DNA of 64,000 nt from Escherichia phage W70. Each line of letters opens with the position of its first letter. Position 1 is the stretch's first letter. The stretch lies in the sequence record OP778610. One strand, given 5' to 3'. Positions 16,994 to 23,656 of the stretch are shown piece by piece. Under the pieces are notes generated by a model. It ran no database searches, was not told the origin of the DNA, and saw only the letters and a program-made list of their open reading frames with translations. Both the position numbers and the translations under genes were made by a program.

Positions 16994-17205
16994 TAAATGA
17001 CCTCCTCTTTAAGAATCTCACGATGATCTGCGCTGTACCATCCTTTCATCGTATTAACTACACCAACAGCCTCGCTGTATGTTTCAAATTTTGATTCTTC
17101 ATGTGGGCCAATACGGACAGTTACCCAAAACAAGTTAAATACTTTACGATGAACTTCGTAATGCGTTGATTCACCTTTCCGAACTTTAACGATCCGAACT
17201 TTCAT
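16993..17205 (-). CDS. hypothetical protein (70 aa)
   Basis: Start at ATG after GGAGGG RBS. Confidence 0.5.
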   Translation of the reverse strand: MKVRIVKVRKGESTHYEVHRKVFNLFWVTVRIGPHEESKFETYSEAVGVVNTMKGWYSADHREILKEEVI

Positions 17206-17401
17206 TACACCACCCTCCAAAAGTCATAAATGCTTGATCAACCATATCTTTCCACTCAGGGTAGAGAGCACAAATCATGATGTAGACCTCTTCATCAATG
17301 TCTTCACACTCCTCCATTTCCAAATACTCTACCACAGGTATGGGCAGAAGGCAATTTATTTCTTTACCCCTGAATTTCAGACCCTTAACTAATTTTAGCA
17401 T
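17186..17401 (-). CDS. hypothetical protein (71 aa)
   Basis: ORF; contains ALYPEW motif. Confidence 0.45.
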   Translation of the reverse strand: MLKLVKGLKFRGKEINCLLPIPVVEYLEMEECEDIDEEVYIMICALYPEWKDMVDQAFMTFGGWCNESSDR

Positions 17402-17402
17402 A

Positions 17403-17642
17403 TCAATCCTTAATCACGTAGAATCCTGATTCGTTCATCAGGACAAAGGACTTGCCGAAGAAATCCTTACGATTATCCAAAACAAGGTAGAATCTTCGCT
17501 CAGACGAGAGGTGATGTGGGTCAGCCATATAGCTTACCCTCGCCGTCATGCCCTTATTCTTCCCTCTTGTGATCCTTACCCTTGTACCATTCTCATATTT
17601 AATATCCACCGAACCTCCATCGCAACTCTTTATGAATCTCAT
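17403..17642 (-). CDS. hypothetical protein (79 aa)
   Basis: ORF. Confidence 0.45.
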   Translation of the reverse strand: MRFIKSCDGGSVDIKYENGTRVRITRGKNKGMTARVSYMADPHHLSSERRFYLVLDNRKDFFGKSFVLMNESGFYVIKD

Positions 17643-18102
17643 CCAACCCTGGTTTCAGTTTTGGAAGATCTCTTATAAACTCAGGATAGAGGACATTAAC
17701 GAAGTCAATCTCATCATCTGTGGGTTTTTGAATATCTTCGAAATACTCGTCAAGATTGAATATCTGCCAATCCTTACACCCTGCCTTTCGGACACCCATG
17801 AAGATTTCATTGTTACAGGTAGCCATCCAGGAGATCCTAGATCCTTTACCATTCGCATTCGGCAATGTTGAAACACAGAAGCGTGGTACTTCCTGAACCT
17901 TAAAACCCTCGTCATAGTATCCACGACCACGTTGAAATTTAAACTTGGTCTTTCCCACTCTTTGACTAATCTTCATATCTCGGCGAAAGCTGTGGTCCCC
18001 CGTATAGATCAGTTGACGAAGACACTGAGTATATCTGATCTTTTTCCAATTCCAATCTCGAATGAGTATTTCATAGACTTCCTTAAATGCTTCATACGCC
18101 AT
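17599..18102 (-). CDS. hypothetical protein (167 aa), PTDDEI..LYPE motif family
   Basis: ORF; C-terminal KPTDDEIDFVNVLYPEF. Confidence 0.5.
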   Translation of the reverse strand: MAYEAFKEVYEILIRDWNWKKIRYTQCLRQLIYTGDHSFRRDMKISQRVGKTKFKFQRGRGYYDEGFKVQEVPRFCVSTLPNANGKGSRISWMATCNNEIFMGVRKAGCKDWQIFNLDEYFEDIQKPTDDEIDFVNVLYPEFIRDLPKLKPGLDEIHKELRWRFGGY

Positions 18103-18331
18103 CGGAGGATTCCTTATCTAGAGCACCAACAATCTCGAACTTTGCTACGCCTAAAACAACCACATGACCCAAGGATTGTACACCTGTCCACGGAGTACCA
18201 TTCCTCTTAGGTCGCTTACCAGTTACATCGCAGAAATCATTCCGCATTTCTGTTGCATCAAACAACTCGCCTTTCGGAAAAACATCTTTGAAGTCAGCGA
18301 TCACGTTAAGACATTTCAGTTTCATATTCAA
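18092..18331 (-). CDS. hypothetical protein (79 aa)
   Basis: ORF. Confidence 0.45.
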   Translation of the reverse strand: MNMKLKCLNVIADFKDVFPKGELFDATEMRNDFCDVTGKRPKRNGTPWTGVQSLGHVVVLGVAKFEIVGALDKESSDGV

Positions 18332-18668
18332 ACACTCCTCTCTCTAATCTTTGTTTGGCAAGTAACTCCCTTTGTGCTCTAAGTGGCATCCTGAAAAATA
18401 TCACAACATTCTCCAAATCCGCTGCCCGTTTTTTAAGCCCTTTGGTGAATTTACCTTCCCGCTTAATTGCATCATATATACCCCTGTACTCCTCTTCAAT
18501 GGAGTTGTCTTCAAATATCTGGTTGGATACCATACTATCAATCTCCATACCGAGAGCTTCAAAGCTATACCAGTCTACATGTTCTTCTGTAACAGGACCT
18601 CTTTCTTTGTACACTTGTCCAGTTATTTCATTAACTACGATCGTTGTCATTGGAGTATCTCCTTGCAT
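18306..18668 (-). CDS. hypothetical protein (120 aa), FFRMP family
   Basis: ORF; C-terminal FFRMPLRAQRELL shared with next gene. Confidence 0.45.
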   Translation of the reverse strand: MQGDTPMTTIVVNEITGQVYKERGPVTEEHVDWYSFEALGMEIDSMVSNQIFEDNSIEEEYRGIYDAIKREGKFTKGLKKRAADLENVVIFFRMPLRAQRELLAKQRLERGVFEYETEMS

Positions 18669-21412: not shown

Positions 21413-21880
21413 TTAGCTACTAATCACCACGAATGCAGTAACTATAGCATACAGAAATCCAATTGCAACAAAAATTATCATAATGGGGTCAGAGGTTACT
21501 CGCTTAAGTTTTCCTAAGAAAGTTGATCGGTATTTGTGTTCCTTCTCCATTTTGTTTATCAAAATGATGAAAGAGTTGATATGAATATCTTCAGCACTCT
21601 CTGCAAAAGGTGTGTACTTGAACGTACCTTCTGTATTTGCAACAAAGCTGCGATGATACTTTTTACCGTCATAACTTTCTATAAGAAGACCATCCTTTGT
21701 CACCCGATAACTGACTGAACGGAACTTGTCATAAAAAACGTATGCCCTGAATCCATCTTGATCGGGAACAGCCTTTCTGACGTAGCCGTCAAAAAACTCC
21801 AATCTCTTTCCAGAATTCAGTTCCAAGTTGTCAGCTAACATAGGGAGTTGACTTACGTATGTAAAGTACATAATGATCAT
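21413..21880 (-). CDS. hypothetical tail-anchored membrane protein (155 aa)
   Basis: C-terminal TM helix PIMIIFVAIGFLYAIVTAFVVISS. Confidence 0.5.
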   Translation of the reverse strand: MIIMYFTYVSQLPMLADNLELNSGKRLEFFDGYVRKAVPDQDGFRAYVFYDKFRSVSYRVTKDGLLIESYDGKKYHRSFVANTEGTFKYTPFAESAEDIHINSFIILINKMEKEHKYRSTFLGKLKRVTSDPIMIIFVAIGFLYAIVTAFVVISS

Positions 21881-22072
21881 CCTTCCACTAAGCTGAAATC
21901 ATTTTATCATATTATGAAAAAATACAACAGCGAAGATCGGTCATGAACACTATGTTGTTAATTTTTACAACAGGACTCCAAAAAAGTATTTAAATCACTT
22001 AAATCGATTTTAATACATAGAAAATACCTATGGACCAGATCTGACCCATAGGCTATACCTTAATGTGAAATT

Positions 22073-22651
22073 TTATTCATTTCCCCGATATTTTTGAATT
22101 GCGATCGAAGTCCTTGGTTCAGCCAGTCCAGTTCCATATGCATACCATTTGCCAGTGAGTGTTTTTCGAGCACCGTAGGACCCAATCTCCATGTCGTCAC
22201 AATAAACATCGTAACCGATCGGGGTCTTAACTAAAAAGAGTACATTACGAGGAATCCCTAAGAGGGTAAACATCGATATGGCATCTTTTGCGATCTCGTG
22301 AGAAATCTTCTCTGCATTCTTTTTACTGGTTGCACTTCTAAACAGTTCCATCTTTAAGAAGATATTGAAATGAATATCATCAAGAACCATCTCATCACGG
22401 AAGCATGGGGTCACAGCCATCCAACTGCCATCTTCCAACTTCCCTTCTTTGTCGAGTTGGAGGAATGATTGCTCTGCGGAAGCCACTGCATATTTCCCGT
22501 TCTGGACAATTCGAAGATCAGTAACATCTTCGGGGCATGTATGGTCCATAGCATCATCATCCACATAGCTTGGGACAACCTTATCATTGAAACCTTTACA
22601 TTTCCACCAACTGTGGGCATCAATAAACAATGTGAAGTCGATGTTTGACAT
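22073..22651 (-). CDS. hypothetical protein (192 aa)
   Basis: Start at ATG after AAGCGAGG RBS. Confidence 0.5.
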   Translation of the reverse strand: MSNIDFTLFIDAHSWWKCKGFNDKVVPSYVDDDAMDHTCPEDVTDLRIVQNGKYAVASAEQSFLQLDKEGKLEDGSWMAVTPCFRDEMVLDDIHFNIFLKMELFRSATSKKNAEKISHEIAKDAISMFTLLGIPRNVLFLVKTPIGYDVYCDDMEIGSYGARKTLTGKWYAYGTGLAEPRTSIAIQKYRGNE

Positions 22652-22652
22652 T

Positions 22653-23156
22653 TTAGCCTCGCTTACCATTCTGGAATGCACGTTTAGTAATTTTTGACAT
22701 AACCATCAGGTCTTCTATTGAAGTGCTTGGATGATACTTATTCAGGTAGGCTTCCATAGCACCGACCAGATCAGAAAGCTCTACCAACTCCATGATCTTA
22801 CATTTTTGTTTAGCTGCATCCTTGAGTTCATCAAGTTCTTCTTGAATCTTAGTGATCTCTCCAAGCTCTCCGCGAGGGAAAGTATCCAGATGATAACCAG
22901 GTTTTTGTTCTTCAATACCCTCATGTCCGACAACACGAAATTTTCCGGCAGCGAAACGCCAAACACCTTCAAAATACACAATGTAATGTTCCGACTCTAC
23001 AATGAAGATAGTGTCGAAATTTTTAAATTTAAAAAATCCTTCGACAAGATTATCTTCTGTACTGAAACTTCCTAAGAAGTTGAGTTCTTGCTCCGTATGA
23101 AATTCCATAACCATATTTTCGTTCTGGAGTTTCGTCAGCAATTTTAAAATTTTCAT
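22653..23156 (-). CDS. putative MazG-like NTP pyrophosphohydrolase (T4 gp56-like size)
   Basis: GAGGAG RBS; C-terminal ELGEITKIQEELDELKD..ELVELSDLVGA resembles MazG EExxE/D motifs. Confidence 0.4.
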   Translation of the reverse strand: MKILKLLTKLQNENMVMEFHTEQELNFLGSFSTEDNLVEGFFKFKNFDTIFIVESEHYIVYFEGVWRFAAGKFRVVGHEGIEEQKPGYHLDTFPRGELGEITKIQEELDELKDAAKQKCKIMELVELSDLVGAMEAYLNKYHPSTSIEDLMVMSKITKRAFQNGKRG

Positions 23157-23167
23157 TTTCTCTCCTC

Positions 23168-23656
23168 TTATGGGCAACACCGTGGAGATCTTCCACAGAA
23201 GAATTGCCAATTGGTTTCTGAGTCTTTGTAATTTACAAACCCTATCCTTCCGCACCCTTGTCCACTACAAACAGCCTCACGAGGATGATAGTCTATACTA
23301 CAAGAGTGTGGATGGTCAAATGCTTCTCGTATTTCAACACATAGTCGGCTTAACCAGGCGAACATTTTTGGCATAGAAGCCTCAAGAAGTTTAAGTTCGT
23401 CGATCGTAGGTTTGTCTTTCTCAAGGAAGAAGTCATCTATCTCGGAAAACAAAATAACGTTTTGAACTATCCCGTCAGTTACCTTGTAAGAGAACTCCTC
23501 AGTAAGCCTCACGGTAACTTCCTCTATCAGTTCTTTTTCATTATCTTGATCTTTTGCCAGTCTTTCCTCAATCCATCGGATAATGAAGAATCTTTCTCTC
23601 TGAACATCCATGTTCAAAGTGTTGATTATTTTTTCATAGATTAGGTTTCCTTCCAT
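23168..23656 (-). CDS. hypothetical Cys-rich protein (162 aa)
   Basis: ORF; KPTIDELKLLEASMP motif; C-terminal Cys cluster. Confidence 0.45.
   Translation of the reverse strand: MEGNLIYEKIINTLNMDVQRERFFIIRWIEERLAKDQDNEKELIEEVTVRLTEEFSYKVTDGIVQNVILFSEIDDFFLEKDKPTIDELKLLEASMPKMFAWLSRLCVEIREAFDHPHSCSIDYHPREAVCSGQGCGRIGFVNYKDSETNWQFFCGRSPRCCP

Follow-up and report, generated by a model that had tools for sequence, protein, structure and literature searches.

A putative paralogous family of small proteins sharing a ~70-residue domain in the Septuagintavirus genome of Escherichia phage W70

Introduction

Poxvirus Bcl-2-like and ankyrin/PRANC proteins are families of large viruses that keep one scaffold or docking motif amid diversification. 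By analogy, the phage proteins described here seem to be organised in a similar way, as tandem paralogues of very low identity with one conserved element and variable appendages; they have, however, no sequence or fold relationship to the poxvirus families, and were seen only in one phage subfamily, the Vequintavirinae. The closest catalogued entries are the same proteins, as grouped in PHROGs (12307, 12686, 12009, 12113, 12410, 15823, 21419, 13666, 30227, 19834 and others), which the family members and their Certrevirus orthologues match with E-values down to 1e-53. PHROGs splits them into 13 groups, all of "unknown function", and does not record the common domain that links them.

The DNA analysed, hereafter the window, is a stretch of 64,000 nucleotides from Escherichia phage W70 (OP778610), a Septuagintavirus (Vequintavirinae) nearly identical to Escherichia phage A73, with 100% identity across positions 17000-24000. 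A preliminary description had reported at least seven neighbouring small proteins with variants of a P-T-x-E-E-L..F-x-A-L-Y-P-E motif near the C-terminus, read either as paralogues that had diversified or as an interaction module common to them. The explanation that we regard as moderately probable is that nine genes are ancient, diverged duplicates, encoding small, soluble, non-virion proteins built on a ~70-residue domain with a binding or regulatory function.

Results and discussion

Nine minus-strand genes carry the motif

All seven peptides first singled out were recovered, at their reported positions, in minus-strand ORFs, which correspond to the annotated phage A73 CDSs A73_246, 244, 240, 238, 236, 235 and 231. 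The shared motif is confirmed as real, and had been understated: the window holds nine carriers, all on the minus strand, the two overlooked ones being 20027-20401 (ILDFFADPMNIEKEEILLLEAANPKW), inside the interval originally noted, and 45525-46178 (EEYFENPLEPTHGELLMALALEG), 25 kb off. The motif is also longer than quoted, with a conserved [DE]-[YFM]-F-x-[DN] beginning about ten residues upstream, and its location near the C-terminus holds for some carriers but not for those at 19320 and 19778 (residues 20-47 of 79-98) or 23168 (residues 74-97 of 162).

The 71-aa product of 17186..17401 (A73_246) is essentially the bare domain, with its motif core VEYLEMEECEDIDEEVYIMICALYPE at residues 24-49 (window 17255-17332); it scored 9.7 bits (rank 1 of 91) in the leave-one-out search described below, and aligned by BLAST with the 20027-20401 protein (E 7e-5 across 64 aa). 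A full-length paralogue of the 20405-20842 protein is encoded by 17599..18102 (A73_244; 167 aa; core DEYFEDIQKPTDDEIDFVNVLYPE, residues 118-141, window 17680-17751; leave-one-out 19.7 bits), which matches phrog_12307 and phrog_12686 and has orthologues in CR3, CR9, phiTE, POP15 and KaOmega. The 98-aa protein of 19320..19616 represents a variant subfamily without P-T (core DRYFTSGESYEGRLEDWNLFAALFPE, residues 22-47, window 19476-19553); it is paralogous, with a BLAST E of 4.5e-9, to that of 19778..20017 (79 aa; core EEYFTSKTPEGRTEDWNFYESVHPE, residues 20-44, window 19886-19960), and was aligned by hhalign with a Certrevirus 96-aa subfamily (95.3%, 62 columns).

In the overlooked 124-aa protein of 20027..20401, a Gly/Pro/Thr-rich N-terminus (residues 1-50) is predicted to be disordered and the domain occupies residues 55-124, with the core LDFFADPMNIEKEEILLLEAANPK at residues 77-100 (window 20102-20173); it scored 13.5 bits at rank 1 and matches phrog_21419, 13666 and 30227 via the domain. 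Nearest to the family consensus is 20405..20842 (145 aa; core EEYFLDPTDILEEEIEMFEALFPE, residues 99-122, window 20477-20548), which reached 30.9 bits, matches phrog_12686 and phrog_12307, shares with the 17599 protein an appendage of N-terminal helix and sheet, and has orthologues in 31 phage records by tblastn. The 173-aa protein of 20839..21360 (core EGLFENPTHPTDEELDLFTALYGD, residues 113-136, window 20953-21024; 18.7 bits; phrog_12009) ends in an acidic tail, ...VDEDIPF, and that of 23168..23656 (162 aa; core DDFFLEKDKPTIDELKLLEASMPK, residues 74-97, window 23366-23437; 8.9 bits, rank 1; phrog_12113) continues after the motif into a Cys/His-rich, zinc-ribbon-like tail. The latter gene is present in 30 phage records; in its orthologues P0009 and P0012, motif and Cys/His pattern are both retained. 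The distant member 45525..46178 (217 aa; core EEYFENPLEPTHGELLMALALEGV, residues 174-197, window 45588-45659) lies in the replication/recombination gene block, outside the interval first noted, and lacks Y-P-E; it scored 13.0 bits at rank 1, with zero decoys at that score, and 20-26 bits in the iterated HMM search, and matches phrog_12410.

Homology among the carriers

With a leave-one-out HMM, every carrier ranked first among 91 non-training proteins (8.9-30.9 bits against at most 4.9 for the runner-up), in a test that is partly circular since the carriers had been picked by eye. Composition-preserving shuffles equalled a carrier's score in only 0-3 of 9,900 cases, an enrichment over shuffled proteins. 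Independent checks were given by recovery of the motif in orthologues of other genera and by comparing the profiles of subfamilies that had been aligned separately: nine of the 15 subfamily pairs were related by hhalign at 68-95% probability, whereas the maximum in 102 family-versus-control comparisons was 2.1%. These alignments cover 25-62 columns, and thus extend beyond the 5-6 residues at which a spurious likeness had been expected to fail. All-against-all BLAST among the carriers gave weak but networked links, the 17599 and 20405 proteins matched one another's PHROG, and the iterated HMM gathered 47 members across seven phage loci, with 5-10 per Certrevirus genome.

A chance likeness, or one due to the composition of small proteins that are acidic and rich in helix, might be suspected from the shortness of the motif, from a domain pairwise identity of only 11-34% among members and from several BLAST links at E 0.001-0.2 in a tiny database; it is refuted by the shuffles, by the members found in other loci, where orthologues of other genera keep the motif, and by the profile-profile comparison, and hardly any credence attaches to it. 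The networked BLAST links, the cross-PHROG matches, the related subfamily profiles and the shared gene order given below support the reading of the carriers as a diversified paralogous family.

Conservation at the protein level

The family genes are under purifying selection, with a pN/pS versus phage UPEC06 of 0.10, against 0.11 for neighbouring genes. An alternative in which the peptide motif is merely the translation of a DNA-level element, for example a site for recombination or regulation within the genes, draws on two repeats that overlap motif codons, 19475-19496 / 20476-20497 (22 nt, 91%) and 17740-17754 / 20537-20551 (15 nt). Yet the DNA repeats among the genes measure 15-22 nt, with none longer, and in the motif core third-codon-position identity is 0.28, about random, and 0.36 at identical residues, against 0.48 and 0.60 at positions 1 and 2. 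These codon-position identities refute a DNA-level element, the probability of which we put at close to nil; as identity is higher at positions 1 and 2 than at position 3, selection is on the protein. Conservation is at the protein rather than the DNA level, and the motif is retained in Certrevirus orthologues with only ~30% identity.

Phyletic range and the Avunavirus fusion

Each paralogue is conserved separately in Septuagintavirus and Certrevirus, and CR3 and the window share the order NTase, 23168-type, aaRS-like, membrane protein, 20839-type, 20405-type, 20027-type, 19320-type and 17599-type; since the subfamilies stand in the same order in Certrevirus, the duplications are older than the split of the two genera. 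In Seunavirus the gene is apparently single-copy, with one copy in the SSE121 locus examined versus nine in the window, and zero family members were found in the 21 kb of Mydovirus examined. A search of 185,579 species genomes of bacteria and archaea gave no relative, and one of 1.84 billion representative proteins gave none outside this phage lineage.

The Seunavirus gp155 / PVP-SE1 gp172 group and the Avunavirus protein Av05_0057 resemble the family in a strand-loop-helix start, [RK]-[DE]-M-F-L-D-x-x-x-P-T-x-[EK]-E, but differ from most family genes in missing the Y-P-E junction. By hhalign, the Avunavirus pair matched the Seunavirus gp155 group at 96.5% (124 columns) and the latter matched the family alignment A3 at 87.8% (36 columns), whereas the Avunavirus pair reached 55.6% against the expanded family directly, so that this link is transitive via Seunavirus. 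In Av05_0057 the related domain follows an N-terminal HigA-type DNA-binding HTH (TIGR02607, 58.7 bits, cut-off 47.7), which none of the nine window proteins carries; judged from this fusion, the domain appears to serve as a module.

The same fusion would suit antitoxin-like or counter-defence neutralisers, in which a toxin- or effector-binding domain stands alone here and is attached to HigA in Avunavirus, and the proximity of the family to RNA-repair-type genes (RlaP nucleotidyltransferase, 23641-24768; CCA-adding enzyme, 26740-28032) and its variable copy number (5-10 across Certrevirus loci) agree with such a role. We nevertheless judge this unlikely: no HigB-like toxin gene lies beside Av05_0057, the PADLOC search was empty, fast or positive selection was not seen, pN/pS being the same as that of the neighbours, and no relatives turned up outside this phage lineage in the genome and protein collections searched.

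Comparison with known families

The motif had not been recognised in the preliminary description, and the libraries bear this out. The best Pfam match of the nine window proteins had an E of 0.029, with all matches under the curated cut-offs, and the 47 domain segments gave at most two members per matching Pfam family; NCBIfam and PADLOC returned zero matches. Against PDB sequences, hmmsearch with profiles A1 and A3 gave best E-values of 2 and 0.44, the single proteins 45525 and 23168 had no match, and a fold search for solved structures found none with a query model whose domain pLDDT was only 74-82. The ~70-residue domain, missing from every curated library searched, thus appears to be previously undescribed.

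Several known families were compared and rejected. The ribbon-helix-helix fold (MetJ/Arc/CopG) has a superficially similar strand-helix-helix order in the motif region, but the family domain failed to match known structures of this fold, its strand [IVL]-x-E-[YF]-F-E is acidic and aromatic, without the polar or basic DNA-contact pattern, and it differs in having a beta-hairpin before the strand and a single proline kink joining the helices. HigA/XRE-type HTH models (TIGR02607, PF01381) matched none of the nine window proteins. A weak PF16857 match, together with a ETLDEALELAEWQY helix, prompted comparison with T7 Gp2-type RNA polymerase inhibitors, and hhalign of A3 against a Gp2 sequence gave a probability of 0.1%. 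The C-terminal tip of E. coli SSB is DDDIPF, and the 20839-21360 protein fits this pattern, with I-P-F closing an acidic run at its extreme C-terminus; a conserved mimic was rejected, as the Certrevirus orthologues end in ...SVFFPLKD, ...SVFFPMKDK, ...STFYPK and ...KIVFWEP. T4 CTS-type capsid-targeted internal proteins, which have a short packaging signal in common, were excluded because no family member is among the 28 proteins of the W70 virion mass-spectrometry proteome, which does include the RCC1-like trio neighbouring the family (PMC11370258); on this one virion proteome, the family proteins are non-virion.

Predicted fold and possible function

AlphaFold models of the 20405 (m4fe7821d0bfe) and 20027 (mc13e3e3ab9e0) proteins, both of moderate confidence (mean pLDDT 62-63, pTM 0.40-0.58), agree on a strand, loop, helix, proline kink and long helix; ten-residue blocks average pLDDT 74-85 across residues 101-130 of the former and 74-82 in the domain of the latter. 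The structure prediction proposed earlier for the motif helix thus yields a small alpha/beta domain, in which the motif is carried by the last strand, the N-capped helix and the proline-kinked long helix. From these models we infer that a beta-hairpin would lead to a strand or short helix with [DE]-[YF]-F and a D-P-x-x-P-T loop, followed by a helix starting from T (T-x-[DE]-E capping box; buried L/I, L/M, F, L), the Y-P-E kink and a long helix, the buried core being assigned from residue type and helical spacing rather than measured burial.

Over the 47 members, the F of [DE]-[YFM]-F is conserved in 90% and the Y-P-E proline in 71%, and the conserved columns are chiefly hydrophobic, spaced like one helix face, with T/D-x-x-E, D-P and P-E cap positions. 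This favours a fold signature, a packing core with helix caps that survives while the remaining protein drifted to ~15-30% identity. Polar residues are unconserved except at acidic and cap positions, so the proteins are probably not enzymes; with pI values of 4.3-9.0 and no hydrophobic runs, they are predicted to be soluble and variable in overall charge.

Six acidic positions (A3 columns E42, D49, E56, E57, E62 and E67) are each kept in 45-72% of the sequences after weighting, basic paralogues included; helix capping by itself would not require so many, and they may mark a binding surface common to the paralogues. Their conservation irrespective of whole-protein pI, and the very different appendages flanking a constant element, speak for a docking module, whereby all paralogues would bind one shared partner via the acidic strand-loop-helix while the variable part brings a cargo or target, by a logic analogous to that of F-box/PRANC proteins. 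Either a host factor or a protein of the phage itself might serve as the partner; one candidate is the ClpP-like protease (29117-29962; PF00574, E 3.5e-8), which is encoded within the transcription block of the family and recurs in Certrevirus, Seunavirus and Mydovirus relatives. Common docking seems rather unlikely, as the majority of the conserved positions are hydrophobic or typical helix caps, as in a fold core, the Y-P-E half is gone from the Seunavirus and Avunavirus members and from 45525-46178, and Mydovirus, in which the 21 kb examined showed no family member, still has the ClpP-like gene. Its specific form, in which the acidic element is a tag for one partner (e.g. a host hub protein or the phage's ClpP-like protease) and the nine proteins act as interchangeable adaptors, each for a different host or phage target, is very unlikely; if true, it would be a phage counterpart of the eukaryotic and poxviral F-box/PRANC adaptor families.

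On the preferred reading of ancient, diverged duplicates, a binding or regulatory role is inferred, in which each copy would bind a different partner stoichiometrically and non-enzymatically, acting on host or phage processes (takeover, regulation, counter-defence).

Neighbourhood and expression signals

The nearest upstream promoter candidate on the coding strand of the family block is a perfect sigma-70-type match with extended -10, TTGAC-N17-TGTATAAT, at 28545..28572 on the minus strand; five such matches occur in the window versus 0.26 expected, and the same promoter type was reported for Certrevirus early regions (PMC7344957). These promoter-like matches and the gene neighbourhood suggest early or middle expression, and the family proteins would be made from a block driven by the host RNA polymerase. 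A consensus scan also placed terminator-like hairpins at 22026-22053 and, on the minus strand, at 21381..21408 (12 pairs, then a T run), the latter separating the membrane-protein gene 21413-21880 from the run of family genes; at the equivalent place, phiTE has an annotated terminator.

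The shared element and its support

The preliminary description had drawn attention to at least seven neighbouring small proteins between 17186 and 23656 carrying variants of one short motif. All seven peptides quoted there were found in the ORFs to which they had been ascribed, and two further carriers, 20027-20401 within the interval and 45525-46178, bring the number to nine; the last sits 25 kb away. The motif itself is real but had been delimited too narrowly, as the carriers share a longer element, h-x-[DE]-[YF]-F-x-[DN]-P-x-x-P-T-x-[DE]-E-h-x-h-[FL]-E-x-L-[YF]-P-[ED]. With leave-one-out hidden Markov models (HMMs), all nine carriers ranked first among 91 non-training proteins; their scores were 8.9-30.9 bits, with the runner-up never above 4.9, and between 0 and 3 of 9,900 shuffled decoys matched a carrier's score, which rules out an artefact of composition.

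Because the nine carriers were chosen by eye, independent support was sought from orthologues and subfamily profiles. An HMM built from window sequences only recovered the motif in proteins of phages phiTE and CR3 that are ~30% identical to their window orthologues, and iteration over seven phage loci yielded 47 members: nine in the window, 5-10 in each Certrevirus genome and one in the Serratia phage Kashira fragment. When separately built subfamily alignments were compared profile to profile with hhalign, nine of 15 pairs were related at 68-95% probability over 25-62 columns, whereas none of 102 comparisons against 17 orthologue groups that lie in the same loci but are unrelated exceeded 2.1%. 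Two outcomes had been named as fatal to the motif, namely loss of enrichment on shuffling and alignments failing beyond 5-6 residues; given the decoy counts and the hhalign spans, neither was observed.

The resemblance is maintained at the protein level. Across the 14 codons of the motif core, paralogues shared identities of 0.48, 0.60 and 0.28 at the first, second and third codon positions, respectively, and the region 16500-24000 contained no DNA repeats beyond 15-22 nt; on both grounds a DNA-level repeat was rejected as the origin of the motif. Chance, composition and DNA repetition are thus refuted as explanations. In comparison with phage UPEC06, pN/pS was 0.10 for family genes and 0.11 for their neighbours, with no sign of ongoing diversifying selection, and the family genes are real, constrained genes.

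Domain architecture and comparison with known families

In the alignment of all 47 members (A3), weighted statistics for each column revealed a near-invariant F (0.90) with Y/F/M and E ahead of it, followed by D (0.65) and P, P/I and T (0.60), E/D and E (0.72), and then L/I/M, L/M/F, F/L, E (0.62), V/A/M, L, Y (0.53), P (0.71) and E/D. The helix that follows has more hydrophobic positions at i+4 spacing, while two hydrophobic strands with a Gly between them lie upstream. Structure prediction had been suggested for the motif helix. In the AlphaFold2 model of 20405-20842 (pLDDT 63, pTM 0.58), comprising an N-terminal helix, five strands and helices at 110-119 and 121-144, the motif is located on the last strand, the loop and the two helices, with residues 101-130 at pLDDT 74-85 as averages per ten-residue block. 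The model of 20027-20401, based on 37 sequences, has a disordered stretch over its first 50 residues and a domain of ~70 residues at pLDDT 74-82, with a hairpin (56-73), a short helix (74-79), a helix (88-97), P99 and a helix (99-123).

T-x-x-E, D-P and P-E are standard helix N-cap arrangements, and from their match to the motif we infer that it probably provides the domain with its packing core and its caps, where the motif residues would be buried. Alternatively, the motif could be a docking tag common to all carriers. Such a role, which we consider unlikely, would make the family of much wider interest. The motif is acidic in all of these proteins, although their pI values span 4.3-9.0; none has hydrophobic runs. 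The best-supported account is an anciently duplicated and diversified family of small soluble non-virion proteins built on a new ~70-residue alpha/beta domain, of which the motif would be the structural signature.

Appendages to this domain differ between individual members. The C-terminal third of 23168-23656 (window 23168-23350) is Cys/His-rich and zinc-ribbon-like (HPHSCSIDY...CSGQGCGRIG...FFCGRSPRCCP), and is kept in two orthologues, P0009 and P0012; two short PHROGs that stand alone, 19749 and 14060, match it as well. The C-terminus of 20839-21360 (window 20839-20862) reads ...VDEDIPF and resembles the tip of E. coli SSB, DDDIPF; its Certrevirus orthologues instead end in ...SVFFPLKD, ...STFYPK and ...KIVFWEP, so the likeness is confined to Septuagintavirus and could be a coincidence.

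The motif had not been recognised from sequence, and database searches bore this out. Family proteins received no assignment in Pfam, NCBIfam or PADLOC, profile searches of PDB sequences gave no match, and the weak single Pfam matches (DUF1266, DUF7675, HCP) were discarded as none recurred across members. The family is spread over 13 PHROGs, every one of unknown function, and Foldseek against BFVD retrieved family members from Certrevirus and Septuagintavirus, together with a 331-aa PBES02 protein bearing an unrelated 'virion structural protein' label. A suspected resemblance to T7 Gp2 was rejected (hhalign of A3 against the Gp2 sequence, probability 0.1%), as was a ribbon-helix-helix fold, on the basis of the fold search and the acidic, aromatic strand consensus. 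The Septuagintavirus and Certrevirus genome papers make no mention of the motif or of the paralogues; the family is undescribed in the curated protein libraries searched and in these two papers.

Three metagenomic proteins related to the gp189-type subfamily of CR3 (P0013, P0016 and P0018) have an N-terminal extension with the pattern G-D-x-Y-x-V...L-Y-x-W-D-G-x-x-W, which is reminiscent of phage tail-fibre N-termini; the N-termini of P0013 and P0018 had no Pfam match.

Distribution and expansion of the family

Searches with three members (tblastn) against 50,697 phage genomes returned 30-32 records, restricted to Septuagintavirus, Certrevirus and Kashira/ABPH49, and the A1 family profile found 11 clusters among 1.84 billion representative proteins, none of them outside this phage lineage. 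Homologue searches with a nine-segment alignment or with 20405 alone retrieved near-identical Septuagintavirus proteins only, as relatives with 30% identity escape the word index; the 47-segment alignment retrieved 27 proteins in three subfamilies, none with a Pfam domain. By HMM scan of the syntenic region, Seunavirus SSE121 has one member, gp155 (E 4.6e-7), and Mydovirus Mydo has none. The gp155 group, with ~33 records in Seunavirus and Avunavirus, matched the expanded family at 87.8% (A3) and 81% (20405/17599 subfamily), with controls at or below 1.7%. With the Seunavirus/Avunavirus alignment, no relative was found in 185,579 prokaryotic species (one genome each), and IMG/VR yielded three known isolates only. 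On these searches, the family is confined to Vequintavirinae.

The proposed paralogy is borne out by the hhalign-related subfamilies and by a gene order common to Certrevirus and Septuagintavirus. As subfamilies follow the same order along the genome in both genera, copy number rose from apparently one, as in Seunavirus, to 5-10 in their common ancestor. The genes 19320 and 19778 arose from a later duplication that took place in Septuagintavirus. The one-to-5-10-copy expansion, the conserved gene order and purifying selection make this a tractable case of large phages assembling a repertoire of accessory genes through duplications that leave a stable scaffold at the centre.

Functional leads and significance

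The sole functional lead is a DNA-binding fusion in Avunavirus, where phages Av-05 and 24-2-1 encode a HigA-family HTH followed by a gp155-type domain (2539-3258 of the Av-05 locus, Av05_0057; 1575-2315 of locus L019). The HTH scores 58.7 bits against TIGR02607 (cut-off 47.7), and the Avunavirus pair aligns with the Seunavirus group at 96.5% over 124 columns (hhalign). The Av05_0057 ORF is named 'putative pirin' in GenBank and 'plasmid antitoxin with HTH domain' in RefSeq. The fusion shows that a regulator can use the related domain as its non-DNA-binding module. Only this fusion and the gene neighbourhood hint at an antitoxin-like or counter-defence role, which we regard as quite improbable; a HigB-like toxin beside the fusion was sought and not found. 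Under the preferred account of a diversified domain family, each paralogue would probably bind its own partner in early or middle infection.

The window contains five perfect matches to the sigma-70 promoter consensus with an extended -10 (TTGAC-N17-TGTATAAT), where chance predicts 0.26, at 2341-2368 (+), 28545-28572 (-), 37585-37612 (-), 51903-51930 (-) and 54737-54764 (-); the four minus-strand sites belong to the family block, the nearest upstream being 28545-28572. This type has been proposed as the Certrevirus early promoter (PMC7344957). Terminator-like hairpins are found at 22026-22053 and 21381-21408. [quoted passage not shown]

Of the small genes labelled 'hypothetical' in this block of a 140-kb phage, roughly one in ten falls into one family, which reduces the number of unknowns and offers, through one domain and one alignment, a single handle on nine proteins. 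Pfam, NCBIfam and the PDB lack the domain; its description would permit a new family entry and tidy annotation in roughly 65 Vequintavirinae genomes. As it stands, the discovery is solid, but the family is of an ordinary kind, a set of uncharacterised phage proteins restricted to one lineage.

Genomic context

The window is identical to Escherichia phage A73 (OP778609.1; Vequintavirinae, Septuagintavirus) over 17000-24000 (100%) and essentially so from ~10 kb to 64 kb, while its first 9.6 kb are ~92% identical over ~70% of their length. The family genes of 17186-23656 are all on the minus strand, within a ~50 kb minus-strand block that also encodes DNA ligase, ribonucleotide reductases, thymidylate synthase, PhoH, Dam methylase, a ClpP-like protein, a CCA-adding enzyme and an RlaP-type nucleotidyltransferase, and they are labelled 'hypothetical protein' throughout in A73, UPEC06, CR3, phiTE and other relatives. 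RNA-repair-type genes are interleaved with them on the same strand: the RlaP nucleotidyltransferase (23641-24768; Pfam PF10127), the CCA-adding enzyme (26740-28032) and a protein annotated in relatives as seryl- or histidyl-tRNA-synthetase-like (22073-22651), without a Pfam match here.

Other minus-strand paralogues include three RCC1-repeat genes in tandem (12219-13361, 13371-14504 and 14518-15717; PF25390, PF00415) and the pairs 26107-26427/26424-26747 (42% identity, E 1e-30) and 48684-49193/52876-53376 (44% identity, E 1e-43). A further pair, 18306-18668 and 18631-18939 (E 3e-9), overlaps at its ends and shares a ...FFRMP... element; 18306-18668 is annotated in UPEC06 and not in A73, where it is probably a missed gene.

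Window positions 1-9600 form a plus-strand small-gene block with ~92% identity over ~67-70% of its length to phages A73, A7_1 and A5-4, so the window comes from a close, mosaic relative of A73 and not from A73. A 69-aa protein at 4871-5080 (+) contains ...LYPEQAENIL..., which matches the helix-Pro-helix half of the motif weakly (E ~0.3-1.2), and was left out of the member count; it is kept in phiTE and CR3 (L005 36283-36492 (-) and L006 39805-40014 (-)).
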